Shown here: positions 25,618 through 46,959 of the stretch, piece after piece | How the letters are laid out: the number at the start of each line of letters is the position of its first letter | How positions within the stretch are numbered: position 1 is the stretch's first letter | Assembly: GCA_013288205.1 (NCBI GenBank) | Contig: JABDCH010000001.1 | Location: 3,480-67,479 of the forward strand | Source of the DNA: Bacteroidota bacterium | GTDB taxonomy: Bacteria > Bacteroidota > Bacteroidia > JABEUT01 | Length of the DNA stretch: 64,000 nt | Direction of reading: 5' to 3' | Notes under the pieces: generated by a model | The model's input: the letters and a program-made list of their open reading frames with translations, nothing else | Database searches by the model: none | Told to the model about the DNA's origin: nothing | Position numbers and translations under genes: made by a program

Positions 25618-25647
25618 ACTATATATTTATAACTAACCACCTCTACT

Positions 25648-27402: not shown

Positions 27403-27747
27403 ACCTTTTTAGGGAACCCTCCTAATTCACGTTTTGAACTGGTTATTCTAATTTGTTTATAAAAAAACGGGCTTTCACCCAACGTTTAAAAAACGACATC
27501 CGTTTACCCTTAAAATGAGATGTGGATAGAAAAGTATTTTATCAATAAATCGGAAGTTATTTGTATTGATATTCTGACATTTGTAAAATTATCTTTAATC
27601 CCCGAAAACAAGCTTTAAACAAAGAATAACGTAATTTTAACGATAACACAAGGTCTGTACTGAATTTTTTATTAAATTGGCCCCGTCTATTGTATCCCTC
27701 AATATATAACCTAACATACCGACGTTGCTACTAAACAACTTCTAGAA

Positions 27748-30700: not shown

Positions 30701-31722
30701 AAATAACCGGTAAGAAATCAGTCTGCATTGGCGATTCTACATTCCTGTGCGCCAAAGCACTGGGCGGAGTGGGTTTAGATACTTATATATGGGAACCCTC
30801 CGGCAACACTAACTCGTGTGTATATATTGCTCCGGGCAATGTCTCGTCTGTCGATTATACTGTTGCAGTTGTAGATGGCTGCGGTGCTACTTCTACGGTA
30901 AGCACCACCATTACTACCGACCCCTACCCTTCCGTTAACATGTATGCCAATTTTTATGATGGTTGCGCCCCTTTCTGTATGCAATTTCATAACGCATCCA
31001 CTATACCGCTTGGAAAACTGGTACAATACAATTGGATACTTGGAAACGGGGATACCCTGAGCTCAGAGAACCCGCTCTATTGTTATAAATCAAGCGGTCA
31101 ATTTGATGTAACTCTTGCTGTAACATCAGACAGTGGCTGCAGCGCAAGCCTGACTAAGAAAGGCATGATTACGGTATACAGCGCTCCGCAGGCTGCCTTT
31201 ACCTATTCACCTCAGCCGGTAACCATCCTTACTCCTACTGTCCAGTTTACCGATGAAAGCCGCGACAAATATGGTATCGCTTATCACTGGTGGACTTTTG
31301 GCGATGGCACTGATTCAATCAGTAACACAACAAATCCTACCCACACTTACCAGGACACAGGCACCTACTGTGCAAATCTGATTGTAATGAATGCCCGTGG
31401 CTGTTCAGATACTATAACCAATTGCCTGATTATAGGCCCTGCCTTTACACTATATATTCCTTCCGCCTTTACGCCCAATGGTAACGGACTGAATGATGTG
31501 TTTAAACCGGTAGGCGAATACATCAAAAATTTTGATATGTATATTTTCGATAGGTGGGGTATGGAAATATACCATACTTCCGATATGAATACGGGCTGGA
31601 ACGGCGCTGTACACGGAGTTGGCGCAATATGCCAGGAAGATACCTATATCTATAAAATAACCGTAACCGACTCGCAGGGCACCCTGCATTCCTATGTGGG
31701 TAATGTGAGCCTGCTGAAATAA
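27748..31722 (+). CDS. Giant cell-surface adhesin (1324 aa), paralog of 3960-7943: SprB repeats, PKD domain, gliding-motility type-B C-terminal domain
   Basis: Signal peptide MKQKLLILLLPAFLYITGINAQ. The same Cys-bracketed N-terminal domain (CDSACTNMNFITGDFTGWYGYY...VDASCEQFSI). SprB repeats. C-terminal YIPSAFTPNGNGLNDVFKPVG...FDRWGMEIYHT...GNVSLLK. Confidence 0.9.
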   Translation: MKQKLLILLLPAFLYITGINAQNVRFPLYNPNGNNTGVKDQNTTESLVYSWDSTLGSVQKQVNASNQNFNAFIQNYQTYLDSERSAIYPQVKKGKLNTSNFQPYINNKKLALVELYNNFSNNKNNLKTPKRLFPTYNAPTCDSACTNMNFITGDFTGWYGYYEVNSSGVNNFNFTGITGGYLGAVNKACFDPNTSSYQMHITTGGNDYLLQTYARISMSQVSPWGFGNSVMLGDSTIPNSGMAILSQKFQVTAVTNSITYAYAILIENPSSHSYHEQPFFSVTLFDSSGDTISNCGKYFVSAGPGLPGFKGIWYSPEGDTVYWRNWTQVNVPLDKYVGQCVTIQFMVGDCSLGGHFGYAYVDASCEQFSIKASSPTGIICGRHGTVTLSGPFGASAYQWSGPKGGILSSDTIENITVDSAGQYTLILTPVTGDLCQDTLHYTVKGLDSLVATAAVNSHIACFGGTGTGIAKAINGYSPYGYQWTAPGGTNAIGTGLVAGNYTVTITDSNACSATATLVMTQPTQLTATTKITPATCGNSNGTATANPNGGVGPYVYAWAPGGQTNKTATNLSSKTYTLTVTDKNGCTTTATAVIPPSVVTAAVNATTSVSCFGGSDGTATVTPNGGISPYAYSWSPKGGTGVTATGLSVGSYTVTVTDSSGCTTTAVGTVAQPAVLVANISGINKILCNGGVGTATAAGSGGTAPYNYAWSPIGGTAAIGTGLSVGTYTVNVTDKNGCTASTKVVMTQPAAISYVVSFTKATCDQANGTASIAVAGGATPYTYAWNPSGETTATATGLKAGTYNVSVNDNNNCTASATVTVTQPTLVTASVTINSQVSCNNGADGSGSITASGGTTPYVYNWNPGGNTNANATGLFALSYTITVTDANGCTATADASLTEPTAILVNITEPRLICKDSTGDLFANASGGAPPFKYAWSAGCLATTSTAQITPITTINYSVVVTDAHGCTASAQIILQFGPSFASEITGKKSVCIGDSTFLCAKALGGVGLDTYIWEPSGNTNSCVYIAPGNVSSVDYTVAVVDGCGATSTVSTTITTDPYPSVNMYANFYDGCAPFCMQFHNASTIPLGKLVQYNWILGNGDTLSSENPLYCYKSSGQFDVTLAVTSDSGCSASLTKKGMITVYSAPQAAFTYSPQPVTILTPTVQFTDESRDKYGIAYHWWTFGDGTDSISNTTNPTHTYQDTGTYCANLIVMNARGCSDTITNCLIIGPAFTLYIPSAFTPNGNGLNDVFKPVGEYIKNFDMYIFDRWGMEIYHTSDMNTGWNGAVHGVGAICQEDTYIYKITVTDSQGTLHSYVGNVSLLK

Positions 31723-31754
31723 AGAAAAACCTATTTTATTTGTTCTACTACAAA

Positions 31755-31790
31755 AGAACCCATCCATAAAAACGGTGGGTTTCTTTTATT
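31755..31790. terminator. Candidate bidirectional intrinsic terminator between convergent genes
   Basis: Hairpin gaaccca-tccataaaaacgg-tgggtttc followed by ttttattt. It sits between the stop of 27748-31722 (+) and the stop of 31809-32192 (-). Confidence 0.45.
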
Positions 31791-31808: not shown

Positions 31809-32192
31809 TCAGGCGCTTTTCTTAATACCTAAAATGCCGATGATAATAAGGGCATAGAAAAAGAAATCTGTAATATTGAAAGAAGAGGTCTTGAATACAA
31901 AAACATCCATCAGTTTTAACCCTACAATAGAAATAGCTACCCAAACGGCAAATGCAACAGCAACAGGTATTTCTTTCATAGCCAATGAAAAGAAAAATAT
32001 GTTTGTAAGCCCGAATAAAACATATCCCAAAGGTGGTAGCAGAATTTTTGCATTAACAGGCTCGGCGAAGTAAAGTTTTACCGGTGTATCTATTATTTTT
32101 TTCATGTCAACATATTTCAGCGAATAAGTCCACCATATTTCTGAAAAAGCGGCAATGAAAAGATATACCCACCGGATAAGCGGCACAGTCAT
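31809..32192 (-). CDS. Small 4-TM membrane protein, SMR/DMT-like (putative small multidrug-resistance-type transporter)
   Basis: 127 aa. N-terminal helix YLFIAAFSEIWWTYSLKY resembles the EmrE/QacE TM1 glutamate helix. An atypical insertion follows TM1. Confidence 0.45.
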   Translation of the reverse strand: MTVPLIRWVYLFIAAFSEIWWTYSLKYVDMKKIIDTPVKLYFAEPVNAKILLPPLGYVLFGLTNIFFFSLAMKEIPVAVAFAVWVAISIVGLKLMDVFVFKTSSFNITDFFFYALIIIGILGIKKSA

Positions 32193-32194
32193 AA

Positions 32195-33115
32195 CTAATA
32201 GTATTTGTCGGTTAGATAAACTAAAATCTGGGCCTTGTATTTTTTGTATTTACGCTTAAATGCGGAATTTTTTTTTACCCATTTCATTAAATCTTGCCTC
32301 CAGTAAAAATACCAATGCCATTTTATATTACCACGCAATTTATTTTCATCCATCCGCTTCACCGAATAAACATGCTGTAGGAAATAATCATTCGGATATT
32401 CATAATACAATCCGAATTTCTCGGGCTTGAAGTCCGGAAGGTATGCAGTACCGAAAAGCCAATCCCACAAAGAAAATTTAGTGGAGAAGTTGGCAAAGAA
32501 AACCTGGTTGTAATCGGCATGGTGCCATTGGTGCATTTCGGGGCCGTTGATTACCTTTTTGAATTTACCCAGGCTCACATTAATGTTAGAATGGATAAAC
32601 ATTCCCCACATGGCATCTATCAATGCTTTTATGGGAACAATAATAGGATTTGCTCCCAGTAAAATAATAGGCGCAAACTCAATGGTTTGGTTAATGATAA
32701 TTTCAGCTATATGCGAACGTGAACCGGACAGCCAATCCACTTCTTTATTGGAATGGTGTGCCTCATGCGTGCGCCATAAAAGCTTTGAGTTGTGCTGCCA
32801 GCGGTGAAACCAGTAGATGTAAAAATCGTGGGTGATGAGAAAAAATAACACTTGCGCCGCAATGGGCCAGTTGGTTACAATATGCAACGAGGAGAGATGG
32901 TAGTGCTGGTCTATCGGATAAATAATATAACTGAAGATAAGTATCTTCAAAAAGAAACTTTGAATTAATGTGTACCAGACAAAGTCTACAAAAAAGCCCT
33001 CCCTGAAAATAGGGAGGCCTTTTCGGTAAGGAAATATCCGCTCCAGCAAAATAATCACAAGCGCGGTTGTTATAAGCAGCGCGGTTGTGACTATTTCAAC
33101 TGAAGCTAAAGACAT
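32195..33115 (-). CDS. Fatty-acid hydroxylase / sterol desaturase superfamily membrane enzyme (di-iron His-box)
   Basis: Histidine boxes HDFYIYWFHRWQH, HEAHHS and HQWHH. N-terminal TM helices. Confidence 0.8.
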   Translation of the reverse strand: MSLASVEIVTTALLITTALVIILLERIFPYRKGLPIFREGFFVDFVWYTLIQSFFLKILIFSYIIYPIDQHYHLSSLHIVTNWPIAAQVLFFLITHDFYIYWFHRWQHNSKLLWRTHEAHHSNKEVDWLSGSRSHIAEIIINQTIEFAPIILLGANPIIVPIKALIDAMWGMFIHSNINVSLGKFKKVINGPEMHQWHHADYNQVFFANFSTKFSLWDWLFGTAYLPDFKPEKFGLYYEYPNDYFLQHVYSVKRMDENKLRGNIKWHWYFYWRQDLMKWVKKNSAFKRKYKKYKAQILVYLTDKYY

Positions 33116-33118
33116 AAA

Positions 33119-34018
33119 TTATTTGGTTTCCTGTAAGGTTTCAGAGTTTTGTCTTCTTAATCTTTTGCGGGCGCCCAATTCGCTTTCGTATACTTTCTTA
33201 ACTCCGTCGCCAATGGCAATTTCAAAATCCCTAATATCCCTTACCATACGTTGCATACCTTGTGGTTCAACCGATGCAGCGTGGTCAGAACCCCACATAG
33301 CGCGGTCGAGCGTAAAATGCCTTTCAACAAAGGTAGCGCCTAATGCTACGGCACAAACGGTAGGCGACAAGCCTGTTTCGTGGCCTGAATATCCAATCGG
33401 AGTTTCAGGGTACATTTCCTCAAGCGTGTTTATCATCTTTAAATTTAATTCCTTCGGAGGACATGGATAAGCTGAGGTGGAATGTGCAATAAGTACATTA
33501 TCCAGGCCGAATTTATTGGTAGCGGCAGTTATTTCATCCATGGTTGACATTCCGGTGGAAAGAATATAAGGCTTGCCGGTAGATTTCACTTTTGAAATCA
33601 ACGAAAAATCGGTGAGCGAAGCAGATGCCATTTTATATACCGGTGTATCGAATTGTTCCATAAAATCAACGGCTTCTTCATCCCAGCAGGAAGCAAACCA
33701 ATCAATGCCGCGCAATTTACAATGAAAATCAATCTCATCATATTCGGCTTTGCCAAATTCTATTTTATGCCTGTAATCAATGTAGGTCATTCTGCCCCAA
33801 GGGGTATCTCTCTCCATATACCATTGGTCTTTGGGAACACACAGTTCAGGAGTGCGTTTTTGAAACTTCACCGCATCGCATCCGGCAGCAGCAGCTTCGC
33901 TGATTAATTTTTTGGCTATTTCTACCGAACCATTGTGGTTAATACCCACTTCAGCAATAATGTATACCGGCTCTCCGTAGCCTATACTCCTTTTATCCCT
34001 GATTTTGATTGTTTTCAT
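33119..34018 (-). CDS. NeuB-family synthase (N-acetylneuraminate / pseudaminate / SpsE-like PEP-condensing enzyme), TIM-barrel part only
   Basis: N-terminus IKIRDKRSIGYGEPVYIIAEVGINHNGSVEIAKKLISEAAAAGCDAVKFQK is typical of NeuB/SpsE. At 299 aa it lacks a C-terminal SAF domain. Confidence 0.8.
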   Translation of the reverse strand: MKTIKIRDKRSIGYGEPVYIIAEVGINHNGSVEIAKKLISEAAAAGCDAVKFQKRTPELCVPKDQWYMERDTPWGRMTYIDYRHKIEFGKAEYDEIDFHCKLRGIDWFASCWDEEAVDFMEQFDTPVYKMASASLTDFSLISKVKSTGKPYILSTGMSTMDEITAATNKFGLDNVLIAHSTSAYPCPPKELNLKMINTLEEMYPETPIGYSGHETGLSPTVCAVALGATFVERHFTLDRAMWGSDHAASVEPQGMQRMVRDIRDFEIAIGDGVKKVYESELGARKRLRRQNSETLQETK

Positions 34019-34110
34019 AGTGTTGATTTTTATAAAGGTTTAATTACTGTTTTCTATTTTAATTTGCTTTGTGATTGAACATTCATCACTCATCATTTAT
34101 AATTCATCAT

Positions 34111-34914
34111 TTAAATGGCCGTCCATCCCCCGTCTACCACCAGGTTAGCGCCTGTCATATACGAAGAAGCGTCGCTGGCAAGGAACACAATGGCTCCCTG
34201 ATAGTCGGTAGGCGCAGCCATTCTTTTTAATAAGGTGCGCTTGCTGTAATTCTTTACAAAATAGCTGTCCTGGTTATTTTCCACTCCACCCGGTGAAAGG
34301 GTATTTACCCGCACATTTTTATCGCCCCAGTACGATGCCAAAAATTTAGTAAAACTAATTACGGCCCCTTTGGTTACCGGGTACGAAACCGATTTGAAGA
34401 AACGTTGGTGGCCGGCTTCATTTTTATAAATGCTTTGGTCGGGGGCCACCATCCCATAAGTAGATGCAATATTGATGATACTGCCTTTTTTCTTTTCGGC
34501 CATTACAGTACCCAGTACTTGCGAGCACAGAAACACACCCGTAATATTTACCTGGATCGATTTATCCCAAAGTTCGATCGGGTAGTTTTCAAACTTGCTT
34601 TGCTCGGCTGCTGCAGCAGGGTTTTCAAACATATCGTTAACGGCGGCATTGTTTACCAAAATATCGATGGTTCCATATTTCTGTAAAATCTTTTCTTTGG
34701 CTGCACGAAGGGAGTGTACGTTGGTTACATTCACGCCCAGCCCCATGTGCTGGCTACCCATTTGCATGGCAAATGTTTTGCATTTAGCATCGTCCATATC
34801 GGCCACCACTACGCTGGCACCCGCTTCGGCCAAGGCTTTGCAATGCTCCTTACCCAATAGGCCGCATCCGCCCGTAACAACCGCTATTTTATTTTCCAGT
34901 GAAAACATCTTCAT
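34111..34914 (-). CDS. Short-chain dehydrogenase/reductase (classical SDR)
   Basis: Cofactor motif VTGGCGLLG. The NNAA motif and the YxxxK region (SYPVTKGA) are present. Confidence 0.85.
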   Translation of the reverse strand: MKMFSLENKIAVVTGGCGLLGKEHCKALAEAGASVVVADMDDAKCKTFAMQMGSQHMGLGVNVTNVHSLRAAKEKILQKYGTIDILVNNAAVNDMFENPAAAAEQSKFENYPIELWDKSIQVNITGVFLCSQVLGTVMAEKKKGSIINIASTYGMVAPDQSIYKNEAGHQRFFKSVSYPVTKGAVISFTKFLASYWGDKNVRVNTLSPGGVENNQDSYFVKNYSKRTLLKRMAAPTDYQGAIVFLASDASSYMTGANLVVDGGWTAI

Positions 34915-34915
34915 A

Positions 34916-36265
34916 TTAGTTCGTGGCTACGGTTGGTTTGGGTTTCATATTAAAGTTGCTCACCTTGCGGAACACAGCTTCCACCGGTTGGCCCTTCAGT
35001 AATTCTTTTACGTTATTATTTTCTACTGCTTTCTTCAAAAGAGGCAATACATCAGCATAGGCCTTTAATGTGTATTCCACATCGGCATCGCTATGGCTGA
35101 AGCACATATTGTGGAAACCGCCCCAAAGAATTCCGCGCTTGATCATTTCCTGTTGCACGAATGATTTAAGCACAAGTGGATCCCCTGCGCTCGCATCAAA
35201 CGTCATAATGGTACGGCAATCGAAGCCAGAGCATTTGGTATAGTTAGCAATACCTAAATCAAAAGCTATTTTATTGTAGCCATCTTTCAGTTTACGGCCT
35301 TGTTTAGCAAGTTGTGCTTGCACATTCTTTTCTTTCATTTCGTTGATGGTAGCCATAGCTGCAGCAATCGAAAGTGCTTCGCCGCCAAACGTGGTAAAGA
35401 AGAAAACCTGTTCATTAAAGAGTTCCATTACATCTTTTCTTCCGGTAAGGAGAGAGATAGGCATGCCATTGGCAAATGCTTTGGAATAAACTGCCAAATC
35501 TGGTTTTACATCAAAATATTCTTGCGCACCACCCAATGCGACGCGGAAACCTGTCCACATTTCATCAAAGATGAGAAGTGTACCGTTAGCACGGCAAACC
35601 TTTTGCAATTCATACAGGAAATTGTTTTTAGGTTCTTCAAATACGAAAGGTTCTAATATCACGCAAGCAACATCCTCATCCAGCGCTTCTTTTATTGAAT
35701 CAATATCGTTGTAATTGAATGTATAGCTAAGGTTGGATGTTTCTTCAGGGATACCCTTGTTACGGCTGGTTACACCAATGTACCAATCGTGCCAGCCATG
35801 ATAACCGCAGCACAATACTTTCTTTCTTCCTGTGAATGCTCTTGCTACACGCACGGCAGCGCTACACACATCGGCGCCGGTTTTGCTTATGCGAACTGCT
35901 TCAGCATTCGGAATTATATCGTGAATCATTTCAGCCAACTCAACTTCCGATTTATGCATCAGCGAAAAAGTGATACCATCCTTTAATTGTTCTATGATGG
36001 CGTTATCCACCCTGTCGTAGCAATAGCCCAATGAAACGGGACCAATGGCCATATTGTAATCGATATATTCGTTTCCGTCAACATCCCATACATGCGAGCC
36101 TTTGCCTTTGGCAAGATATTTTGGAGCAACGCCTTTTACATATTGTCCGGGGCCCTTAGCGAGGGTTTGGGTAACGGGTGTCATAATCTTCAAAGCTCTT
36201 TCATAAAGCCTGTCCGAATTAGTAATGTCGGGATAGTTTTCGTTAAACTTGATGGTGTTTGTCAT
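34916..36265 (-). CDS. Class-III (GSA-aminomutase-like) PLP-dependent aminotransferase
   Basis: GSHVWDVDGNEYIDY, CCGYHGWHD, and a pyridoxal-Lys region (VYSKAFANG) typical of class-III transaminases / HemL-like enzymes. Confidence 0.8.
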   Translation of the reverse strand: MTNTIKFNENYPDITNSDRLYERALKIMTPVTQTLAKGPGQYVKGVAPKYLAKGKGSHVWDVDGNEYIDYNMAIGPVSLGYCYDRVDNAIIEQLKDGITFSLMHKSEVELAEMIHDIIPNAEAVRISKTGADVCSAAVRVARAFTGRKKVLCCGYHGWHDWYIGVTSRNKGIPEETSNLSYTFNYNDIDSIKEALDEDVACVILEPFVFEEPKNNFLYELQKVCRANGTLLIFDEMWTGFRVALGGAQEYFDVKPDLAVYSKAFANGMPISLLTGRKDVMELFNEQVFFFTTFGGEALSIAAAMATINEMKEKNVQAQLAKQGRKLKDGYNKIAFDLGIANYTKCSGFDCRTIMTFDASAGDPLVLKSFVQQEMIKRGILWGGFHNMCFSHSDADVEYTLKAYADVLPLLKKAVENNNVKELLKGQPVEAVFRKVSNFNMKPKPTVATN

Positions 36266-36273
36266 AATATATT

Positions 36274-37191
36274 TTATTTTAAGGATACAAGTACATTTTC
36301 TAACTCACGAACGGTGTGTTCGGCAATTTTTTCAGGAGTAAACTCTTCAAATTCAAACACACTGTTCAGCAGGGCAGGTTTGAACCACCTATTACGCAGC
36401 GCCATCGGGAAAACAGGGCACGTGATAGTATTCTTTAAGAATATTTCTGCCAGGATACTGAATAATCCTCCCGTCAAAAAGTGGTCTTCCACCGTTACAA
36501 TTAGTGAGGTATTTCCGGCAATGTTCAGGATGAGTTCTTCATCCATCGGTTTCAGGCTGCGCAGGTTTACCATCCCTACAGAATATCCCTTTTCTTCCAG
36601 CATCGCTTTTGCCCGGAATGTATTTTCAAACAATAATCCGTACGTAAGCAGGGTAATATCATTTCCTTCGGAAATCACTTCTGCTTTACCGGGAACATAA
36701 TCACTATGCTGGTAACTCATCTTCTTATTATTGATGCGGATGTATGCAGCATTGGGAGAATTAATCATATCAGGCAGCATAGCAACCAAATCATTCTCAT
36801 CGGCGGGAGCATATACTTCCATGCCCGGTATGCCGCGAAGGATAGATACATCTTCAATAGCCTGGTGCGTGGGACCATTGGCATCAGATAAAAAGCCCGG
36901 AATGTAACCACACAATTTTACCGGGAGATGGGCTATGCCCACATCGGTGCGGATAAATTCAAATGCCCGCATGGTTAAAAATGAGGCGAGTGCATGCACC
37001 ACAGGTATGCGTCCGCGGAGAGCTAACCCGGCGGCAGCGCCAATCATGGTTTGTTCGGTAATTCCGGTATCAATAAACCGATCTCCAAGCAGGGCAGGCA
37101 TGTTACGGATAAGGGCTCGGTTTTCGGCCGTCATCACTACAATGCGTTCATCTTTCTTTGCAAGCCCGGCAAGGGTTTCTTCGTAATTCAT
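36274..37191 (-). CDS. Transketolase C-terminal subunit (pyrimidine-binding + C-terminal domains) of a split transketolase
   Basis: 305 aa with ...GITEQTMIGAAAGLALRG... Immediately downstream of, and co-directional with, the N-terminal subunit gene. Confidence 0.85.
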   Translation of the reverse strand: MNYEETLAGLAKKDERIVVMTAENRALIRNMPALLGDRFIDTGITEQTMIGAAAGLALRGRIPVVHALASFLTMRAFEFIRTDVGIAHLPVKLCGYIPGFLSDANGPTHQAIEDVSILRGIPGMEVYAPADENDLVAMLPDMINSPNAAYIRINNKKMSYQHSDYVPGKAEVISEGNDITLLTYGLLFENTFRAKAMLEEKGYSVGMVNLRSLKPMDEELILNIAGNTSLIVTVEDHFLTGGLFSILAEIFLKNTITCPVFPMALRNRWFKPALLNSVFEFEEFTPEKIAEHTVRELENVLVSLK

Positions 37192-37192
37192 A

Positions 37193-38050
37193 TTATCGTA
37201 CTATAAGTGTTTCTGATTCTAATTTTGCTTTTGCTTCTCCGTGTAATTCCCGCACTAATGCGCCTGTTTCTTCGCGGGTGAAGTTACAGAACCAGCGGTC
37301 GGCACGGGCCTCAATGCTGGGTAGTCCTTTGCCGCGAACGGTGTCGGCTACTATTACATTTACTTTGCCTCCGGTGGTGTTGATTCCCTTAAAGGCTGCA
37401 TTTATTTCTTCAAAATCGTGGCCGTTGATGCGGTTCACGCTACAATTGAACGCCTCAAATTTCTTTTCCAGTGATTCGAGCGGTATCAAATCTTCGGTGC
37501 GGATGTTAGCCTGGAAGTGGTTCCTGTCAACAAGGAAGATGAGGTTATCAAGCTTATAGGCATTGGCCACAAGCAAAGCTTCCCAAAAAGTGCCTTCATT
37601 CATTTCGCCGTCACCTGTTATTACTACAATGCGGTTGGTTTGTTTCTTCATTTTGCAATCGAGCGCTACGCCAATAGCTACCGATGGAAGATGTCCCAGC
37701 GAACCGGAATGAAATTCTATCCCCGGAATGGCCCTGTTAGGGTGCCAGTAAATGCTGTCGTTGGTAGAAAGGTGGTTTAGCAGGCGTTCCTTTTTAATGA
37801 ATCCTAATTCGGCTAAGGTACCATATAAAGCGGGCACATCATGTCCTTTGGAAAGGAATAAATAATCACGTTCGGGGTCAGTTAGGTTTTCAGGAGTAAC
37901 ATTTAAAAATTCGCTGTAAAGGTACACAATCAAATCGGCGCAAGAGAGCGATGCCCCGATAAAGCAACCTCCTTCGGCTGACATGTTAATGATGTGTTCC
38001 CTCACGTTAAGCGAGCGGATTTCCAGGTTTTCTATTTCGGCTTTATTCAT
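37193..38050 (-). CDS. Transketolase N-terminal subunit (thiamine-diphosphate-binding)
   Basis: SLSCADLIVYLY, GHDVPALY and GSLGHLPSVAIGVAL (TPP-binding GDG-like region ITGDGEMNEG). Confidence 0.85.
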   Translation of the reverse strand: MNKAEIENLEIRSLNVREHIINMSAEGGCFIGASLSCADLIVYLYSEFLNVTPENLTDPERDYLFLSKGHDVPALYGTLAELGFIKKERLLNHLSTNDSIYWHPNRAIPGIEFHSGSLGHLPSVAIGVALDCKMKKQTNRIVVITGDGEMNEGTFWEALLVANAYKLDNLIFLVDRNHFQANIRTEDLIPLESLEKKFEAFNCSVNRINGHDFEEINAAFKGINTTGGKVNVIVADTVRGKGLPSIEARADRWFCNFTREETGALVRELHGEAKAKLESETLIVR

Positions 38051-38052
38051 AA

Positions 38053-38865
38053 TTATATTGTCGTCCGTGTTTGTTCAGGTTTTATAGTTTTCAATTCATC
38101 CAAATGATTCCTGTACCAGTTTACCCCGGCGAGGTGACCATTTATTTTCATCAGTTCGGGTTTCCTGTGTAATAAATCCAAAATGTCGTTCATGCTGAAT
38201 ACCGGATTTACAGGGTACAGCGCATCATATACGCTTTTTATAAATTCATAATCTTCGGGGTAATCAATAGTCCAGCGGTGCGACATAGAATAGTCGGTAT
38301 CCGGCAGGGCTACATTACCAATATTGAATTTATCGGGGTTTTCCCAGATATAAGGTGTTGTATGTTCGCGTTCCAGCTCACGATCCGCATTCTTCCATGC
38401 ATCCGACAAGGCATCCATAGTCATCACCTCCACATCGTTCCCGTCGGGATAGGAAGCGGGATGCAGGTTGCTTACATACTGATATATATTACGATGTTCA
38501 AGGAAATAGCCAATTACGTTATCAATAATGGCAGGGTCAATAAGTGGACAGTCAGAAGGAATTTTTACTACCACATCGGCATTAAAAAGTTTGGCCGTTT
38601 GGAAATGCCTGTCGAGTAAATCGGCGGAGCTTCCGCGATAACAGTAAATACCTTCTTTGATGCAAATTTGCTCAATCTCGTCATCTTCTTTATACACCGT
38701 TGTAGAAACTACCACCGTGCCTTTTAGTTTAGATGCCACGATACGTTCCAACTGGCGCAAAAAGAGAGCCCTTCCCGCAAGGGGAAGAAGCACTTTATTT
38801 GGCAGCCGTGTTGAGCTGCAGCGAACCTGCATAACGGTAACGATATTCGGGTTCGCAGAGGTCAT
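38053..38865 (-). CDS. Acylneuraminate / SpsF-type cytidylyltransferase (CTP_transf_3 family)
   Basis: N-terminus IVTVMQVRCSSTRLPNKVLLPLAGRALFLRQLERI matches the SpsF/NeuA-like P-loop (ARxxSxRLPxK). The start overlaps the upstream gene stop by 4 bp. Confidence 0.8.
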   Translation of the reverse strand: MTSANPNIVTVMQVRCSSTRLPNKVLLPLAGRALFLRQLERIVASKLKGTVVVSTTVYKEDDEIEQICIKEGIYCYRGSSADLLDRHFQTAKLFNADVVVKIPSDCPLIDPAIIDNVIGYFLEHRNIYQYVSNLHPASYPDGNDVEVMTMDALSDAWKNADRELEREHTTPYIWENPDKFNIGNVALPDTDYSMSHRWTIDYPEDYEFIKSVYDALYPVNPVFSMNDILDLLHRKPELMKINGHLAGVNWYRNHLDELKTIKPEQTRTTI

Positions 38866-39923
38866 GCAGCAATGGTTGATTTTTTAGCAGCCGATTTATT
38901 AACCGCCGGTTGATAGGTTGCCAGTTGTTGCCAGAACTCTTGTTTGGTACCGCTGAATTCAATATATTTTGTACAGATCTCGGCAATATTTTTAGCAGAG
39001 GTGCCACTGTTTTGAACGGGTAAAAGTTTTTTTAATTGCCCCAAGTCAAAATACGAATGTACTTCTTTGCCCAATGCCATGCCCAGGTATACTACCGATG
39101 AAAATTGGGTAATGAGTATGCTGCAATTAGCAATCATGGCATTCAGGTTACCATTGGTGTGCACCAGCGAACCGGCAGGGGCATGTTTCTTTATTTCGCG
39201 GGTGGCCCTTGCGTGGTTTTCGTTTGGATGTAATTTGAATATCAATCTTCTTCCTCTAGCAATTTGAGCGCAGCGTTTTATAAATTTTTTGCGGTTATCA
39301 ACGCCATAGCATTCGCGTATGTCGGTAGTGGCAACCAACACATGTCCCTTTTCTTTAAAATCATTATGGAGGAACGATTCCGCATTATCAAAATTAGGGA
39401 TGCCGGTAACTACCATCTTTTGGCGCCAGGTTCCTCCTTCCGAAAATTTATCTTTATATCCTTCCGAAGCCACGCAATATACATCGCAGCGATTGAGGGA
39501 ACCATTCAATGAAGTGCTGGCAAGATAAGCTGGCAGGTCGAATTGCTTCACAATCCGGCTCCACAATGAAAGCGGGTCGGTCATGCCTTCCTGAACAAAA
39601 ATAGTTTTGGTGTGTTTAAAACGGTAAGGAACAATTAGCTCGGTGCATATCACAACCAACTCATAGTTGTTTCCATACACTTCAGCACGATAATCGTTAG
39701 GTAGGTTATGTTCTTTTAAATATTGTTCAGATTGTTGTTTGAATACTCCTCCAAGAATGGAGTTCTCCGTTAGCCCGGCTTTAACTGCCACTTTTAGAAT
39801 AGGATTATCGGCGAAGAGTTGGCTGAAATAGCAATCGTAACCTTTCAGATACGATGCTATTTGGTGCATCTGTGTAGTTTGATTGAGAGACCCTGTTATA
39901 AATAGTATCTTCTTCCTTTGCAT
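38862..39923 (-). CDS. GT-B-fold transferase-like protein (PseG / TagF / KpsS-like), paralog 1; start assigned to the internal Met matching paralog 2
   Basis: N-terminal Rossmann-like KILFITGSLNQTTQMHQIASYL. C-terminal KLHPNE...NCSILITQFSSVVYLGMALGKEVH. About 45% identical to the 40275-41327 product. The ORF track extends it to 39989. Confidence 0.6.
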   Translation of the reverse strand: MQRKKILFITGSLNQTTQMHQIASYLKGYDCYFSQLFADNPILKVAVKAGLTENSILGGVFKQQSEQYLKEHNLPNDYRAEVYGNNYELVVICTELIVPYRFKHTKTIFVQEGMTDPLSLWSRIVKQFDLPAYLASTSLNGSLNRCDVYCVASEGYKDKFSEGGTWRQKMVVTGIPNFDNAESFLHNDFKEKGHVLVATTDIRECYGVDNRKKFIKRCAQIARGRRLIFKLHPNENHARATREIKKHAPAGSLVHTNGNLNAMIANCSILITQFSSVVYLGMALGKEVHSYFDLGQLKKLLPVQNSGTSAKNIAEICTKYIEFSGTKQEFWQQLATYQPAVNKSAAKKSTIAA

Positions 39924-40274
39924 ACACGAATTTTTATCTGCACCACTCTCTGAATTACCCGCAAAATATATGATTGAACGATTCTGCATTCGAATTACTT
40001 TAAAAGGGGGTTGCGAGGGATGAATCTGTACATACTATTGTTTTGATATAAAAACATGGTAATGAATGCACAATCAATTAATTGACAATGCAATTTAAGA
40101 AAATTCCGGTTTTCTCTACCGTTAAAGAGTCCTTTTTAAGATAGACCAGTCCAATTTTATTATATTGAACTGACAGTGAATTATTTATGCCGTAGTGGAA
40201 GAAAAATTTACGGGGGAGACGACTTGAGCTGCAATTACATTGCATTATGTTACTGATACACACATTATTTTCGG

Positions 40275-41327
40275 TTAACTGGCCCAAGCTATATCTACAT
40301 GATTATACAATTCCTGGTATTTGTTTGTTAATGCAACCCGTTGTTCCCTTTCGTGCTGCAAATAAGCCCTGCAAATAGTTGCAATTTTAAGCGATGAGGT
40401 TCCGCCGTTTTGAAGGGGTGCCAGGCTCTTCAGCTCATCAATATCAAAATACGAGTGCACTTCTTTGCCCAGTTCAAGCCCAACATAAGCCAGGGTAGAG
40501 TATTGCGTAATCAATACATCGCTATTAGCTACCATGTGGTTAGGATTGCCGTTTGAATAGGTGAGAGTACCTCTGGGAGCCCATTTTTTCACCTCGTTGA
40601 TTGCCCTTTCCTGCAACTCATTGGGGTGGAATTTAAAAATCAATTGGCGGCCATCAGCAATATTAGCGCAATTCTTTATGAACTTTTTCCGGTTTTCAAA
40701 CCCATATAATTCCCTTATATCTGATGTAGCGGCAAGTACATAATTTTTGTGCGGAAAATCGTTGGTGAAATAGGCTTGCATGTCGTCGAAGTTGGGCATA
40801 CCCGTAACAATAATCTTCGACTCATCGGTACCTGCTGTTGCAAACTTGTCTTTATAGCCCTGCGAGGCAACACAATATATATCACATTGGTCAGATGCCC
40901 CGTTGAGCGCAGTGCTCATGGCATAGTATCCCGGCAATCCCATGGAAAGCACTATTTTGCTCCATATCGTCATGGGGTCGGTCATGCCTTCTTGTATGAA
41001 AATCGTTTTTGTATTCCTGAACTTTTTCGGGAAAACCATATCGCTGCACATCACCACCAATTCGTAGGTATTACCCAACGCTTCGCCGCGATAATCACTT
41101 TTAAGTCCGTGCTGATTATAATAGTTTTCTGCTTTCTCCCTGTATGTGTCCGAAATTATCACACTCTCCACCAAACCCGTTTTCATTAACAGATTGATGG
41201 CCATCCCGTCGTCGAACAATTGAGAAAAGTAACAATCGTAGTCGGGGGTGAGGTGCGATGCAATTTTATGCATCTGTATGGTTTGATTGAGGGAGCCTGT
41301 CAGGAAAAGGATTTTCTTTTTAGGCAT
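40275..41327 (-). CDS. GT-B-fold transferase-like protein (PseG / TagF / KpsS-like), paralog 2
   Basis: KILFLTGSLNQTIQMHKIASHL...KFHPNE...NSDVLITQYSTLAYVGLELGKEVH. Collinear with 38862-39923. Confidence 0.6.
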   Translation of the reverse strand: MPKKKILFLTGSLNQTIQMHKIASHLTPDYDCYFSQLFDDGMAINLLMKTGLVESVIISDTYREKAENYYNQHGLKSDYRGEALGNTYELVVMCSDMVFPKKFRNTKTIFIQEGMTDPMTIWSKIVLSMGLPGYYAMSTALNGASDQCDIYCVASQGYKDKFATAGTDESKIIVTGMPNFDDMQAYFTNDFPHKNYVLAATSDIRELYGFENRKKFIKNCANIADGRQLIFKFHPNELQERAINEVKKWAPRGTLTYSNGNPNHMVANSDVLITQYSTLAYVGLELGKEVHSYFDIDELKSLAPLQNGGTSSLKIATICRAYLQHEREQRVALTNKYQELYNHVDIAWAS

Positions 41328-41485
41328 ATAATAAACGTATGTTGAGATTCATTTCCAATGCTTACAATGCAAAGAAATAAAACACCGTTTACGAAAAGGT
41401 TACTGAAACTTTAAGTTAAGTATAACAAAAAGTTACCTCAATATGACGGAATCTTATCCTCGTCTTAACAAACAGGATACATTAC

Positions 41486-42403
41486 TCAGGAGAACTGGAA
41501 CACTCCTGCAATAGCAAAGTGGTCGGACAAGTCGTGGAACTTTTCGTGCCACTGTTTGCGAAACACGTTAATGAACATCCGGGTATCAAATTTATGATGC
41601 TCGTTTTTATGATAGTCGTTACAAGTGTACAATATGTAGTCTATCAGTTGGGGTTTTTCTTTTTCCCCTTTGATGAGATCATTTACGGTATGGTCGTACG
41701 AAAAGGTATGTTCTCCATGCAGCGGAAATTGCCTTGCACGAAGAATATTTAATATCTGCTCATACTTTTCCGACTCGTGGTGCATGGTATTGAAATCGCC
41801 TGCCAGCAATTGCGGAACGCCGCTTTCGGCATAAGGCTCCAATAATTCCCTGCGAATTTGTTCGCATTGCAACGCTCTTATTTTTTGCGATGGCTTCCCG
41901 CCAAATTCCGATTGCAGGTGCGTACCCACTAACTGGAATGCAAACCCATTTTTTTCCGATTGAATAAGCATGGCGCCTTTGCAGGCAAACCAGTCGGGAC
42001 CGCGACCGTTTACGAAATACATATTCTTCACTACCATAAACGGAATCTTGCTGATGATCCAGATGCCGGAATTGGTCTTCCACATTACATTCTTTGGCGG
42101 ATCGCCCGACTCATAAGGGAAATAAGAAGCGAGCCCCTTGCGTATGATTTCGCGCGCTGTGCTGTCGAATGCTTCCTGGAACACGATCATATCAGCATCT
42201 TCATCTTTCAGCACATTCACAATTTCGCATGCTCTTTTCGACTGGCCCGTACGCATTATAAAGCGCGGAAGCATAAAGATGTTCCAGGAAATTATTTTGA
42301 GGCTATTGCCGTTTTCAGTTAGTATCGAAGTTTGGGGAGACGGAGTATCTATCGTGTTATTTTGGTTATCGTACGAGCTTTGAGGAGCCACCTTTTTTTG
42401 CAT
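41486..42403 (-). CDS. Endonuclease/exonuclease/phosphatase (EEP) family phosphoesterase, neutral-sphingomyelinase-like
   Basis: IISWNIFMLP, MIVFQEAFD, and terminal SDHFAIAGVF are EEP catalytic motifs. Confidence 0.75.
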   Translation of the reverse strand: MQKKVAPQSSYDNQNNTIDTPSPQTSILTENGNSLKIISWNIFMLPRFIMRTGQSKRACEIVNVLKDEDADMIVFQEAFDSTAREIIRKGLASYFPYESGDPPKNVMWKTNSGIWIISKIPFMVVKNMYFVNGRGPDWFACKGAMLIQSEKNGFAFQLVGTHLQSEFGGKPSQKIRALQCEQIRRELLEPYAESGVPQLLAGDFNTMHHESEKYEQILNILRARQFPLHGEHTFSYDHTVNDLIKGEKEKPQLIDYILYTCNDYHKNEHHKFDTRMFINVFRKQWHEKFHDLSDHFAIAGVFQFS

Positions 42404-44533: not shown

Positions 44534-44573
44534 TATTATCGTAATGGAGGCTTCCGATGTGTGCAATAAACTG

Positions 44574-45896: not shown

Positions 45897-45970
45897 TTTA
45901 GGCCTTTATCAACTAATACGTGCTTAATCTTCAAATCGTTAGGTAAATATAAAAATAATACACTTTATAC

Positions 45971-46318
45971 TCAAATCAGTTCGTGCTTTATCTTTTTCGG
46001 GAGGCTTTCAAACACCAATTCGTAGGAGTGGTCTATTATTTCAAGCAGCAGTGCTCGAGGCAAGCCCCCATCCATATATACGGAGTTCCAGTGCTTTTTA
46101 TTCATGTGGTAGCCGGGTATAATTTCACTATATCTTTCCCTTAATTCTACGGCACGTTCAGGGTCGCATTTAGCATTGAAACGATTACCTTCATCAACAC
46201 TCGCTATAAGGAATATTTTTCCACCTACTTTATAAACCAGGGTAAGCTCCCCAAACGGGAAGGTTTCCTCCACGCCTTTTTTCTGAAGACAATAATCGCG
46301 CAATTCTTCTATATTCAT
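45971..46318 (-). CDS. MmcQ/YjbR-family protein
   Basis: MNIEELRDYCLQKKGVEETFPFGELTLVYKVGGKIFLIA...HMNKKHWNSVYMDGGLPRALLLEIIDHSYELV matches the YjbR fold signature. The start is placed at the internal Met; the ORF track extends to 46390. Confidence 0.75.
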   Translation of the reverse strand: MNIEELRDYCLQKKGVEETFPFGELTLVYKVGGKIFLIASVDEGNRFNAKCDPERAVELRERYSEIIPGYHMNKKHWNSVYMDGGLPRALLLEIIDHSYELVFESLPKKIKHELI

Positions 46319-46469
46319 CTTCTTACAGATTGAGGTATAAAGATACTTATTAATTAATTGAAAACAGTATTGGTGTCTGTCATACGTCATAACGCGATAT
46401 ATATCTTAAAAAGAATAACTAATATTACATCGCCTTTCGGCAGTAATTACATCACAACACCGAGCAAAT

Positions 46470-46895: not shown

Positions 46896-46959
46896 GGGAG
46901 CTAAGAACAAGAGTATATAGGGCATCCCCTTTTTCCTCTTAGTTCTTAGCTCTTAACTT

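Follow-up and report, generated by a model that had tools for sequence, protein, structure and literature searches.

The 11 genes at 31809-42403 of the window, the 64-kb stretch of DNA analysed here, probably form two units: an EEP-fold gene with one GT-B-like gene (paralog A) and, beyond a gap of 351 bp, a block running from a second GT-B-like gene (paralog B) through an SMR-family gene. Judged by gene content and order, the second block is the local copy of a syntenic operon of about 10 genes found in Bacteroidota and other FCB-group phyla. As the best explanation of this operon we tentatively favor a lipid head-group pathway, in which a CMP-activated, amino-substituted, sialic/Kdo-like sugar acid would be made and attached to a membrane lipid. 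Family membership and gene context are the grounds on which the sugar, its acceptor lipid and the physiological role are inferred. The features, in transcription order, are as follows.

41486..42403, minus strand, EEP-fold phosphodiesterase, neutral-sphingomyelinase-like, 305 aa, without signal peptide (PF03372, 45 bits; cutoff 24.5)
40275..41327, minus strand, GT-B-like paralog A, 350 aa, EEP-linked type
39924..40274, minus strand, intergenic gap of 351 bp between the EEP/paralog A pair and the conserved operon
38862..39923, minus strand, GT-B-like paralog B, 353 aa from Met23, operon-linked type (ORF reaches 39989)
38053..38865, minus strand, cytidylyltransferase of the KdsB/NeuA/SpsF superfamily, 270 aa (PF02348, 87.4 bits; cutoff 22.6)
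37193..38050, minus strand, split transketolase, N-terminal ThDP-binding subunit (PF00456, 85.3 bits; top NCBIfam match transketolase PRK05899.2-5)
36274..37191, minus strand, split transketolase, C-terminal subunit with pyrimidine-binding and C domains (PF02779, PF02780)
34916..36265, minus strand, class III (HemL-like) aminotransferase, 449 aa (PF00202, 162.6 bits)
34111..34914, minus strand, classical SDR oxidoreductase, 267 aa (adh_short_C2, 161 bits)
33119..34018, minus strand, NeuB-family PEP-condensing ulosonate synthase without SAF domain, 299 aa (PF03102, 253.5 bits, whole profile)
32195..33115, minus strand, membrane di-iron His-box hydroxylase of the FA_hydroxylase superfamily, 306 aa (PF04116, 104.6 bits)
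31809..32192, minus strand, SMR-family small four-helix membrane transporter, 127 aa (PF00893, 44.9 bits; cutoff 23.7)
31750..31782 (approximate), minus strand, terminator-like hairpin 3' of the SMR gene, AACCCA...TGGGTT then CTTTTGT, from sequence reading

A preliminary description of this DNA had reported 13 co-directional genes. The genes are indeed co-directional, all being long ORFs on the minus strand, but they number 11, as did the items in that description's own list; the remaining ORFs of the region are shadow ORFs nested in or antisense to them. Homologues and gene callers place the start of paralog B at Met23 (39923) within an ORF of 38862-39989. The ATGA overlap between its stop and the cytidylyltransferase start (38862-38865) is real, and six further junctions measure 1-8 bp. 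Three others are loose: 92 bp separate SDR from NeuB, 158 bp separate EEP from paralog A, and 351 bp separate the two paralogs. The earlier claim of one translationally coupled operon is therefore limited to paralog B through SMR, with one 92-bp break. It does not extend to EEP and paralog A, because in the closest relatives (loci L012 and L013) this pair stands without the rest of the operon. The promoter of the conserved operon probably lies in the 351-bp gap, for which an Rfam search returned no match. On both sides the flanking genes are on the opposite strand and encode T9SS cargo proteins.

The GT-B-like protein is encoded in at least 580 species genomes. Synteny was surveyed in the best 80 species-level loci, nearly all of them from Bacteroidota, and the order GTB-CT-TKN-TKC-AT-SDR-(HAD)-NeuB-FAH-SMR was found in the great majority. 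Carriers include Chitinophaga ginsengisoli, Ferruginibacter albus, Mucilaginibacter, Spirosoma and Hymenobacter, and the same order occurs in Ignavibacteriota, KSB1, Chloroherpetonaceae and divergent metagenomic lineages. The cytidylyltransferase gene lies directly 3' of the GT-B-like gene in all complete loci, the hydroxylase gene keeps its place beside NeuB and SMR across nearly all complete loci, KSB1 included, and SMR is the final gene in most loci. NeuB and HAD are absent from L043 and L056, and the transketolase and SMR from L091, which counts against the pathway as proposed: not every step is obligatory. Neighborhood comparison revealed no characterized syntenic locus and no characterized operon member, and a literature search found no paper describing the operon, in agreement with the earlier remark that the gene combination was not recognized as a described pathway.

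Pfam and NCBIfam profile searches confirmed all of the family assignments made previously. The cytidylyltransferase attains no KdsB, PseF or NeuA equivalog model in NCBIfam, and its nearest solved structure is 6oew, named simply 'Cytidylyltransferase' (E 4e-41). To the best of our knowledge, the characterized PF02348 members all make CMP-ulosonates. The NeuB-like synthase lacks a SAF domain, as first described, and misses both the NeuB_NnaB (252 versus 399.65) and PseI (208.7 versus 340.25) equivalog cutoffs; its solved relatives include the 290-aa chain of 6ncs, which is of comparable length. Among solved structures, the transketolase C-terminal subunit best matches the C-terminal chain of a split transketolase from Carboxydothermus (146 bits). 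The aminotransferase scores below cutoff with PRK06209 (396 versus 486) and with TIGR00713 (hemL; 249 versus 527) and, judged from its sequence, is not a true GSA aminomutase; its solved relatives include GSA aminomutases and the class III sugar C-6' aminotransferases 7lm0 and 7lld. The top NCBIfam matches of the SDR (PRK09186, 187.7) and the SMR protein (SugE, 40.6) fall under their respective cutoffs of 255 and 126, and the sole NCBIfam match of the hydroxylase is to the ornithine-lipid hydroxylase OlsE (98.7 bits; cutoff 475).

About 48 orthologous operons contain a HAD gene of 165 aa immediately 5' of NeuB, with SDR on its other side. The Chitinophaga ginsengisoli HAD protein exceeds the cutoff of the KdsC-family model TIGR01670 (144.6 versus 106.95) and comes close to, but remains under, that of the KDN-9-phosphate phosphatase equivalog (159.3 versus 180). 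Taken together, this phosphatase, the PF02348 cytidylyltransferase and the NeuB-family synthase favor synthesis of a CMP-ulosonic acid by way of a sugar phosphate and speak against a CDP-polyol. No homologue of the KdsC-type phosphatase was detected in the whole 64-kb window. This counts against the proposed pathway; if the pathway holds, another phosphatase must act.

In this pathway the split transketolase would supply an aldose phosphate, which the SAF-less NeuB-like enzyme would join to PEP to give a 3-deoxy-ulosonate phosphate. Phosphate would be removed by the KdsC-type enzyme in most orthologous operons and by some other phosphatase in the window. The SDR would then oxidize a hydroxyl group and the aminotransferase would convert the carbonyl to a free amine, although both steps could equally take place on the sugar phosphate before condensation. 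The PF02348 enzyme would form the CMP-sugar, and the GT-B-like protein, translationally coupled to it, would put the sugar acid on a membrane lipid at the cytoplasmic face. The His-box hydroxylase would modify the acceptor lipid, and the SMR protein would carry the product across the membrane. Counting against this last role, the best matches of the SMR protein are guanidinium/QAC-type exporters, and its NCBIfam matches at E <= 0.01 include no lipid-flippase SMR models such as ArnE/ArnF. In loci from other phyla, read at their 5' ends, an MprF-type flippase domain accompanies the operon, either as a fusion or as a neighbor.

The GT-B-like proteins belong to a narrow, unnamed family with 375 representatives at 50% clustering. 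Paralogs A and B are 56% identical, and most operon-linked copies elsewhere match paralog B better than paralog A. In fold, NeuC/UDP-GlcNAc 2-epimerases and TagF are equally near. Both paralogs (21.6 and 20.1) are under the gathering score of 22.1 for Pfam Glyphos_transf (TagF), and the label 'TagF-like' thus fails as a statement of family membership. The top match in a PDB profile search is the TagF-like polymerase Cps3D, with CDvLITqYSt aligned to CDLLITDYSS. Unlike the TagF/TarL CDP-polyol phosphotransferases and the TagF-like capsule polymerases, the family is partnered with a cytidylyltransferase of CMP-ulosonate type, and no conserved N-domain histidine is evident in its alignment. An NCBIfam search gave no match to the PseG model TIGR03590 at E <= 0.01.

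Three of the 375 representatives (P0126, P0129 and P0134) consist of an N-terminal PF03706 (LPG_synthase_TM) domain fused to a C-terminal GT-B-like domain; one such fusion was confirmed as a single ORF, followed by CT and TKN. In L093 and L099 a stand-alone PF03706 gene lies immediately 5' of the GT-B-like gene. The fusions share with MprF, the lysyl-phosphatidylglycerol synthase/flippase, an N-terminal flippase-type membrane domain and a C-terminal cytoplasmic catalytic domain, and they fit the head-group-installing role proposed earlier for the GT-B proteins. Nevertheless, the catalytic domain is the GT-B-like protein rather than an aminoacyl-PG synthase, and the Bacteroidota copies, including that of the window, lack PF03706, leaving SMR as the operon's sole membrane-transport candidate. 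By eye, N-terminal hydrophobic, membrane-anchor-like segments are apparent in some family members. One member, P0127, is fused to a fatty-acid-desaturase-like domain (sub-threshold Pfam match, 27.5 bits; cutoff 29.7).

Nonulosonic acids usually decorate surface glycans, and sugar-acid clusters for such glycans have NeuB plus a PF02348 cytidylyltransferase as their standard core. Weak similarity also links the two paralogs to the BFO_1060 glycosyltransferase family and to TIGR04396 ('surface carbohydrate biosynthesis protein'), with E values of 1e-5 to 3e-3 and scores far under cutoffs. A CMP amino-ulosonic acid might accordingly be transferred to LPS core, capsule or a protein O-glycan, the hydroxylase and SMR being unrelated passengers. 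We consider this unlikely: within and beside the operon, the window has no further glycosyltransferase gene and no Wzx/Wzy, ABC exporter or polysaccharide gene, and none recurs there across the 80 loci; the hydroxylase and SMR genes are kept in the operon from Bacteroidota to KSB1; and the GT-B-like domain occurs fused or adjacent to a lipid-flippase-type domain. Rather less probable is that the GT-B-like protein is a divergent NDP-sugar hydrolase/2-epimerase of NeuC/PseG type that frees an aldose for the NeuB-like enzyme, so that the operon would make a CMP-sugar only and the transferase would be encoded elsewhere. Against it, Pfam Epimerase_2 matches one paralog only (17.2 bits; cutoff 30.6), the PDB search placed a TagF-like polymerase first, and L/N and Q occupy what we take to be the positions of the two basic residues of the epimerase N-terminal loop. 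A soluble epimerase is ill-suited to membrane fusions and gives no evident reason for an MprF-type partner, membrane anchors or a gene standing alone beside a phosphodiesterase; moreover, the KdsC-type phosphatase of most operons suggests a sugar-phosphate route, for which an NDP-sugar hydrolase is unneeded. The CDP-amino-polyol phosphate proposed in the preliminary description, made by transketolase, aminotransferase, SDR and cytidylyltransferase in turn and installed by TagF-like phosphotransferases, is highly improbable, as the cytidylyltransferase is of PF02348 (KdsB/NeuA) and not TagD or IspD/TarI type, and the NeuB-like synthase (in almost all orthologous operons) and the KdsC-family phosphatase would be left without a role despite being among the operon's most conserved genes.

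The proposed lipid head-group pathway has partial counterparts in known systems. The KDN pathway of Bacteroides thetaiotaomicron reportedly comprises KDN-9-phosphate synthase, KDN-9-phosphate phosphatase and CMP-KDN synthetase and, like the operon, groups genes for a sugar-phosphate NeuB-family synthase, a KdsC-family (HAD type C0) phosphatase and a PF02348 cytidylyltransferase. The operon differs in its additional split transketolase, SDR and class III aminotransferase, in its dedicated GT-B-like, hydroxylase and SMR genes, in a synthase that lacks SAF and is under every equivalog cutoff and, in the window, in the missing phosphatase gene. Pse/Leg clusters (PseBCHGIF, LegBCHGIF and B. subtilis sps) likewise combine a NeuB-family synthase and an SpsF/PseF-type cytidylyltransferase with a GT-B-fold neighbor. 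However, the searches bore out that the operon has no 4,6-dehydratase, DegT aminotransferase or N-acetyltransferase, and the PseI, PseF and NeuB_NnaB cutoffs are missed; with these early defining enzymes absent, a class III aminotransferase in place and a split transketolase embedded, the combination is non-canonical, as had been noted. In Shewanella Kdo8N synthesis, KdnB is said to oxidize Kdo before KdnA transaminates it. The logic is similar, a hydroxyl of a 3-deoxy-ulosonic acid being oxidized and transaminated to a free amine before CMP activation, but the SDR and class III aminotransferase are unrelated to those enzymes, making this analogy and not homology. The aminoDAHP branch of AHBA/rifamycin synthesis reportedly uses the RifL oxidoreductase, RifK aminotransferase, RifM phosphatase, split transketolase Orf15A/B and PEP-condensing synthase RifH. 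These roles, with a HAD phosphatase and PEP-aldose condensation to an amino-3-deoxy-ulosonate phosphate, match those in the operon by analogy only: each is filled by another protein family, the operon has no kinase, and its product would be CMP-activated rather than cyclized.

A precedent for the type of product may be the Chlorobium limicola aminoglycosphingolipid, whose head group is reportedly neuraminic acid, a free-amine nonulosonic acid on ceramide. This is an FCB-group membrane lipid, and the operon has relatives in Chloroherpetonaceae; in contrast, sphingolipid production is not known from many carriers, Hymenobacter and Spirosoma among them. The lipid is attributed to Jensen, Knudsen & Olson 1991, as cited in PMC11762602.

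The EEP protein aligns end to end with TIGR03395 (sphingomyelin phosphodiesterase) at 105 bits, under the cutoff of 248, and SMase-type catalytic residues can be recognized by eye (E in VFQEAF, H in GTHLQ, D/N in GDFN and D-H in SDHF). In L012, L013 and L014 an orthologue lies immediately 5' of a GT-B-like gene, and in L048 one lies 3' of the operon. We regard EEP and paralog A as a putative accessory pair, in which EEP, as a phospholipase-C/sphingomyelinase-type enzyme, would remove the phospho-head group from a lipid and paralog A, as a second transferase, would re-decorate the lipid that is left. The EEP superfamily includes sugar-type phosphomonoesterases, for example inositol polyphosphate phosphatases, and in the window, as in L014, an EEP gene is present upstream and the HAD gene is absent. 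It is nevertheless improbable that EEP is a phosphomonoesterase standing in for the KdsC-type enzyme, as L048 carries both genes and L007, L061 and L065 carry neither, EEP is paired with a GT-B-like gene without biosynthetic genes in L012 and L013, and the best specific model is a sphingomyelin phosphodiesterase.

The lipid phosphodiesterase reading of the pair resembles PlcP-Agt lipid remodeling under phosphate starvation, reportedly described by Sebastian et al. 2016, where a phospholipase-C-type phosphoesterase gene lies beside a lipid glycosyltransferase gene. Comparable pairs are EEP with paralog A (window and L012-L014) and Metallophos with a second GT-B-like paralog (KSB1), although the protein families differ and a CMP-sugar acid would take the place of the UDP-hexose donor. 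In two independent duplications, in the lineage of the window and in KSB1, a phosphoesterase gene lies immediately 5' of the second GT-B-like paralog. In 36 of 89 loci the operon has an esterase gene within 1.5 kb, and these genes represent four unrelated folds (Metallophos 16, GDSL 13, GDPD_2 6 and EEP 4; Pfam-confirmed), a raw count without a formal null model. Among a subset of loci inspected by eye, many of these neighbors appear to have N-terminal signal peptides, a point against the proposed pathway.

Profile searches against Pfam and NCBIfam upheld all of the family assignments made in the preliminary description. The gene count of 13 was too high, and the minus strand of 31809-42403 contains 11 long open reading frames. 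In transcription order these are as follows.

41486-42403, minus strand: EEP-fold phosphodiesterase (Exo_endo_phos match), first in transcription order
40275-41327, minus strand: GT-B-like paralog A, 56% identical to paralog B
38862-39923, minus strand: GT-B-like paralog B, starting at Met23 as in homologues and in gene-caller predictions
38053-38865, minus strand: cytidylyltransferase, CTP_transf_3 (PF02348)
37193-38050, minus strand: transketolase N subunit, Transketolase_N (PF00456)
36274-37191, minus strand: transketolase C subunit, Transket_pyr (PF02779) and Transketolase_C (PF02780)
34916-36265, minus strand: class III aminotransferase, Aminotran_3
34111-34914, minus strand: SDR, adh_short_C2
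33119-34018, minus strand: NeuB-like synthase (PF03102), lacking the SAF domain
32195-33115, minus strand: FA_hydroxylase-family protein (PF04116)
31809-32192, minus strand: SMR protein, Multi_Drug_Res (PF00893)

The 4-bp ATGA overlap between the paralog B and cytidylyltransferase genes is present as described, and six further junctions in the 11-gene block are tight, with gaps of 2, 1, 8, 1, 3 and 2 bp. Wide junctions separate the SDR and NeuB-like genes (92 bp), the EEP and paralog A genes (158 bp), and the two paralogs (351 bp). A hairpin and then a T-run lie 3' of the SMR gene. On both sides the flanking genes are on the opposite strand and encode T9SS-secreted proteins. Genes of this kind are abundant around the operon (22423-31722 and 42542-54962), one of them coding for a 1324-amino acid protein (27748-31722); their markers are Por_Secre_tail or CHU_C C-terminal domains, SprB, and PKD and SBBP repeats. 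These neighbours confirm that the DNA is of Bacteroidota origin; no functional tie of theirs to the operon was evident. Rfam searches of the region and of the whole window detected neither a riboswitch nor a leader sequence in the operon; the sole match above gathering score in the window was a tRNA gene at 18727-18810 on the minus strand. Scanning for sigma-70 promoters and terminators gave counts no higher than in shuffled sequence and is uninformative for Bacteroidota promoters. The window belongs to an uncultured Bacteroidota genome, with identical contigs in several metagenomes from JGI and SRA.

The stretch from paralog B through the SMR gene, hereafter the conserved operon, is old and widespread. 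When relatives were scanned with one genome per species, at least 580 genomes encoded a GT-B-like relative. The best 80 loci of these carriers are almost all from Bacteroidota (Mucilaginibacter, Puia, Chitinophaga, Flavitalea, Hymenobacter, Spirosoma, Flectobacillus, Arcicella, Aquirufa, Cyclobacteriaceae and Saprospiraceae) and also include Melioribacter. Mapping of the 11 window proteins onto these 80 loci revealed the recurrent order GT-B-like gene, cytidylyltransferase, transketolase N, transketolase C, aminotransferase, SDR, a gap, NeuB-like synthase, FA_hydroxylase and SMR, with 55-77% identity between the window proteins and their orthologues. The same order is found in Ferruginibacter albus, Chitinophaga ginsengisoli and a KSB1 genome, and its 5' portion in divergent metagenomic lineages. 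A second clade of the GT-B-like family comprises proteins from Ignavibacteria, Chloroherpetonaceae, KSB1 and Nitrospirae-labelled metagenome-assembled genomes. Reduced forms also exist: the Melioribacter operon (L091) is without transketolase and SMR genes, the NeuB-like gene and an additional phosphatase gene discussed below are absent from two Mucilaginibacter operons (L043 and L056), and three related operons (L050, L054 and L072) end after transketolase N, with unrelated genes beyond. Such variants could serve as natural experiments on dispensable steps. A literature search found no paper on this gene combination. The operon brings together known enzyme superfamilies and an unnamed transferase-like family in a grouping that is widely conserved but undescribed.

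From the observed gene content, conservation, fusions and neighbours and from the predicted fold, we infer all the chemical steps of the best-supported pathway, outlined as follows. The transketolase would supply an aldose phosphate, which the NeuB-like enzyme would condense with PEP to a 3-deoxy-ulosonate phosphate, and a phosphatase would then release the free sugar acid. The SDR and class III aminotransferase would add an amine, either before the condensation, as in aminoDAHP synthesis, or after it, as in Kdo8N synthesis. The PF02348 enzyme would form the CMP-sugar, and the GT-B-like protein would transfer the sugar to a membrane lipid. The His-box hydroxylase would modify that lipid or make its acceptor hydroxyl, and the product would be translocated by the SMR protein or, in other lineages, by an MprF-type domain. 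For the EEP/paralog A pair we envisage head-group exchange on an existing phospho- or sphingolipid. We give this eight-step statement, lipid acceptor included, slightly less than an even chance of being correct as a whole. Attachment of the same sugar to a surface glycan instead appears unlikely: no other glycan-assembly genes are present, and the links to the hydroxylase, the SMR protein and the flippase are conserved.

The proposed transfer step depends on the GT-B-like family, which is narrow (375 representatives after 50% clustering, E ≤ 1e-3). Its members are all named hypothetical protein in the databases, with the exception of one UniRef entry named UDP-N-acetyl glucosamine 2-epimerase. 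An alignment of 29 diverse members displays the motifs G-S-x-N-Q-T-x-Q-M, V-Q-E-G-M-x-D-P and F-C-V-A-S-E-G-Y, as well as V-T-G-I-P-N-F-D, F-K-L-H-P-N-E, L-I-T-Q-x-S-T and P-x-Q-N-G-G-x-S-A. The preliminary description had taken the two paralogs to be GT-B proteins, possibly TagF-like. An AlphaFold2 model predicts a GT-B fold (pLDDT 86.8, pTM 0.85), in agreement with the first part of that claim, but the paralogs reach no curated family threshold. With Glyphos_transf (PF04464, TagF-type) they scored 21.6 and 20.1 bits versus 22.1. Paralog A scored 17.2 versus 30.6 bits with Epimerase_2 (PF02350), which paralog B did not match, and neither paralog matched Capsule_synth (PF05159) or PseG (TIGR03590) at E ≤ 0.01.

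Fold comparison of the model gave scores of 13.7 for polysialyltransferase and 12.7 for WaaA, and in Foldseek the model matched epimerases at ∼5e-10 and TagF at ∼5e-9. A single-sequence PDB search with paralog A returned no match even at E 10. The family profile placed the TagF-like polymerase Cps3D first among PDB sequences (E 0.005, via a C-terminal motif), with epimerases and KpsC only at E ≥ 0.19 (KpsC at E 1.3). These results are mixed, so neither sequence nor fold decides between an epimerase or hydrolase and a transferase.

Gene context discriminates better. The GT-B-like gene is directly upstream of the cytidylyltransferase gene in every complete locus, and translation of the two genes is often coupled. 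In three representative clusters (P0126, P0129 and P0134) the GT-B-like domain is preceded by an N-terminal LPG_synthase_TM domain (PF03706), and one such fusion was verified as a single open reading frame followed by the cytidylyltransferase and transketolase N genes. In locus L093 and in a Chloroherpetonaceae genome (L099), PF03706 is encoded by a gene of its own, immediately 5' of the GT-B-like gene; Pfam detected no such domain in the window. A PF03706 domain joined to a cytoplasmic catalytic domain is the layout of MprF, which suggests that the substrate is a lipid, altered at the inner face of the membrane before being translocated. Some family members have apparent N-terminal hydrophobic segments resembling membrane anchors, as judged by eye, and in one member the fusion partner is an acyl-lipid-desaturase-like domain, for which the Pfam match is sub-threshold (27.5 versus 29.7 bits). 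Although the fold ranking favors a hydrolase of the NeuC/PseG type, the fusions to membrane domains and the route through a phosphatase count against it, and we regard such an activity as improbable. The PF03706 protein of L093 (3569-4624) best matches the model for HpnL, a membrane protein of hopanoid clusters (95 bits, cutoff 195.65), a possible hint at the lipid class in that lineage.

The remaining enzymes bear on the identity of the sugar. The NeuB-like protein matches PF03102 at 253.5 bits (gathering score 22.1) over profile positions 1-241 of 241, but falls below the equivalogs TIGR03569 (NeuB_NnaB; 252.1 versus 399.65) and TIGR03586 (PseI; 208.7 versus 340.25). Pfam finds the NeuB domain alone in its 299 residues, with no C-terminal SAF domain, and a homologue search was saturated by close Bacteroidota orthologues and gave no outgroup information. 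The cytidylyltransferase passes the CMP-ulosonate synthetase family threshold (PF02348, 87.4 bits versus 22.6) and misses the equivalogs, the best KdsB-type model scoring 49 versus 193 and PseF 17.8 versus 205.7. The N, Pyr and C domains of the split transketolase are spread over two adjacent genes; the C subunit scores nearly equally with DXS (158.6 bits) and transketolase (154.6 bits), and its role is a predicted one. The closest solved relative of this subunit is the biochemically characterized split transketolase of Carboxydothermus. The aminotransferase is under the HemL cutoffs (TIGR00713, 249.5 versus 527.3; best model the HemL-like PRK06209, 396 versus 486). Class III enzymes that introduce an amine at C-6' of aminoglycoside sugars are among its structurally solved relatives and set a precedent for conversion of a sugar hydroxyl to a free amine by an SDR/aminotransferase pair.

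The gap in the recurrent order is about 500 bp long and in about 48 of the orthologous loci is filled by a gene for a 165-amino acid HAD protein. The Chitinophaga ginsengisoli copy (L008) passes the KdsC-family cutoff (TIGR01670, 144.6 versus 106.95) and is just under the KDN-9-phosphate phosphatase equivalog (159.3 versus 180). In KDN and Kdo biosynthesis a KdsC-type phosphatase, a NeuB-family synthase and a PF02348 cytidylyltransferase constitute a sugar-phosphate route to CMP-ulosonic acids. The presence in these operons of a KdsC-type phosphatase gene directly upstream of the NeuB-like gene, together with a PF02348 enzyme, points to such a route, and the pathway probably makes an ulosonic acid rather than a polyol phosphate. 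No HAD homologue is encoded anywhere in the 64-kb window, where the SDR-NeuB spacing is 92 bp, and the gene is also missing from L007, L014, L061 and L065. The EEP enzyme might stand in for the missing phosphatase, but we consider this unlikely. Its product aligns end to end with the sphingomyelin phosphodiesterase model TIGR03395, yet scores 105.4 versus a cutoff of 248.2. The CDP-polyol/TagF scheme offered in the preliminary description is very improbable, because the CMP-ulosonate route gives roles to all of the biosynthetic genes and leaves none for it.

Of the two membrane-associated families at the 3' end, the FA_hydroxylase protein scores above the PF04116 threshold (104.6 bits), its only specific match being to the OlsE equivalog (NF052566), which it misses (98.7 versus 475). 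The SMR protein passes PF00893 (44.9 versus 23.7) and misses the SugE equivalog (40.6 versus 126). Assignment of the SMR protein as an ArnE/ArnF-like lipid flippase was dropped, as no such specific model was among its matches.

Paralog A groups with the GT-B-like copies of L012 and L013 (76 and 67% identity), which directly follow an EEP orthologue and have nothing else of the operon encoded within 10 kb. Paralog B is similar to the operon-linked copies. The single GT-B-like gene of L014, which heads a full operon, has an EEP gene before it. From these arrangements, the window looks like an EEP/GT-B pair set before a conserved operon. KSB1 gained its second GT-B-like paralog independently; this copy is 62% identical to the operon copy and directly follows a Metallophos gene. 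It lies in a cassette divergent from the operon (L098, 4218-9703, minus strand) that encodes Metallophos, the second paralog, GFO_IDH_MocA, SDR, a second PF02348 protein and PhyH, and that may act as a further, related system for modifying and transferring a sugar.

An esterase gene is located within 1.5 kb of the operon in 36 of 89 loci (a raw count, with family identities confirmed by Pfam). Metallophosphoesterases (16), GDSL lipases (13), GDPD_2 phosphodiesterases (6) and EEP proteins (4) are represented, and in 5 of the 16 Metallophos loci the gene is 7-23 bp from the NeuB-like gene, heading a Metallophos-NeuB-FA_hydroxylase-SMR unit. Judged by eye in part of the loci, many of these esterases have apparent N-terminal signal peptides. 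The occurrence of four unrelated esterase folds at the same position suggests a functional connection with the hydrolysis of esters or phosphodiesters, and the recurrence of phosphoesterase neighbours suggests a tie to phospholipid turnover or phosphorus economy. In the Spirosomataceae-type loci L039, L051, L058 and L076, a 404-amino acid Glyco_trans_1_3/GT28-like glycosyltransferase is encoded ∼1 kb past the Metallophos gene and could be a further lipid glycosyltransferase. Solitary GT-B-like genes have other neighbours. That of L087 is convergent with a gene for a 461-amino acid, apparently secreted metallophosphoesterase (11068-12453) whose N-terminal motif SDIHLNPYFD resembles acid-sphingomyelinase-like phosphodiesterases, as read from the sequence. 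Those of L082 and L084 (Mucilaginibacter) are downstream of a conserved, putative ECF-sigma/small membrane protein/Hsp20-like trio and adjoin putative BlaR1-like sensor genes, as read from translations, which hints at envelope-stress control of the solitary copy.

The locus resembles KDN/Kdo-type CMP-ulosonate pathways with an extra amination step but belongs to none of them. Its proteins miss the NeuB, PseI, KdsB, PseF, HemL, SMase and OlsE equivalog cutoffs, and the paralogs fall short of the TagF and Epimerase_2 family cutoffs. A likeness to pseudaminic and legionaminic acid clusters had been noted with the reservation that their defining early enzymes were absent. That absence was borne out: none of the 11 proteins matches a 4,6-dehydratase, a DegT-type aminotransferase or an N-acetyltransferase. 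With Kdo8N and aminoDAHP the locus shares amination logic but not membership. Its relatives share the delivery logic of MprF, of which the locus is not a member, and the logic of the EEP/paralog A pair resembles that of PlcP-Agt remodelling.

It is possible, though rather doubtful, that the operon represents a pathway for an unrecognized class of membrane glycolipid, widespread in the FCB group and made via a new CMP-sugar:lipid transferase family. A free-amine 3-deoxy-ulosonic (sialic- or Kdo-like) acid would be carried directly on diacylglycerol or ceramide, giving a zwitterionic, phosphorus-free, ganglioside-like lipid that may act with the phosphoesterases to replace phospholipids and could underlie an aminoglycosphingolipid of Chlorobium limicola. 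This aminoglycosphingolipid was described in a 1991 report, its head group reportedly being neuraminic acid, and is an attractive lead for the operon product. No Spt-like sphingolipid genes were found in the remainder of the window. If the eight-step outline is correct, Bacteroidota of soil and fresh water, together with their relatives, have a pathway dedicated to linking a sialic- or Kdo-like amino sugar acid to a membrane lipid, and the 1991 lipid becomes genetically testable. A GT-B family now annotated as hypothetical in thousands of database entries would gain a name, and the co-recurring SAF-less NeuB, HemL-like aminotransferase and split transketolase a function. Polar-lipid descriptions of these genera routinely list "unidentified aminolipids/aminoglycolipids", for which the products would also be candidates.

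Upstream of the GT-B-like gene, k-mer analysis found TGTAACT to be enriched 23-fold over the locus background. In the Chitinophagaceae loci L044, L062, L063 and L088, a direct repeat of approximately TAACTTATTGTRA, with copies ∼22 bp apart, is present about 60-110 bp 5' of the GT-B-like start; the upstream regions in the window did not show it. The repeat is limited to this lineage, was not assignable as a Pho box and was set aside as evidence. The repeat may be a response-regulator site.
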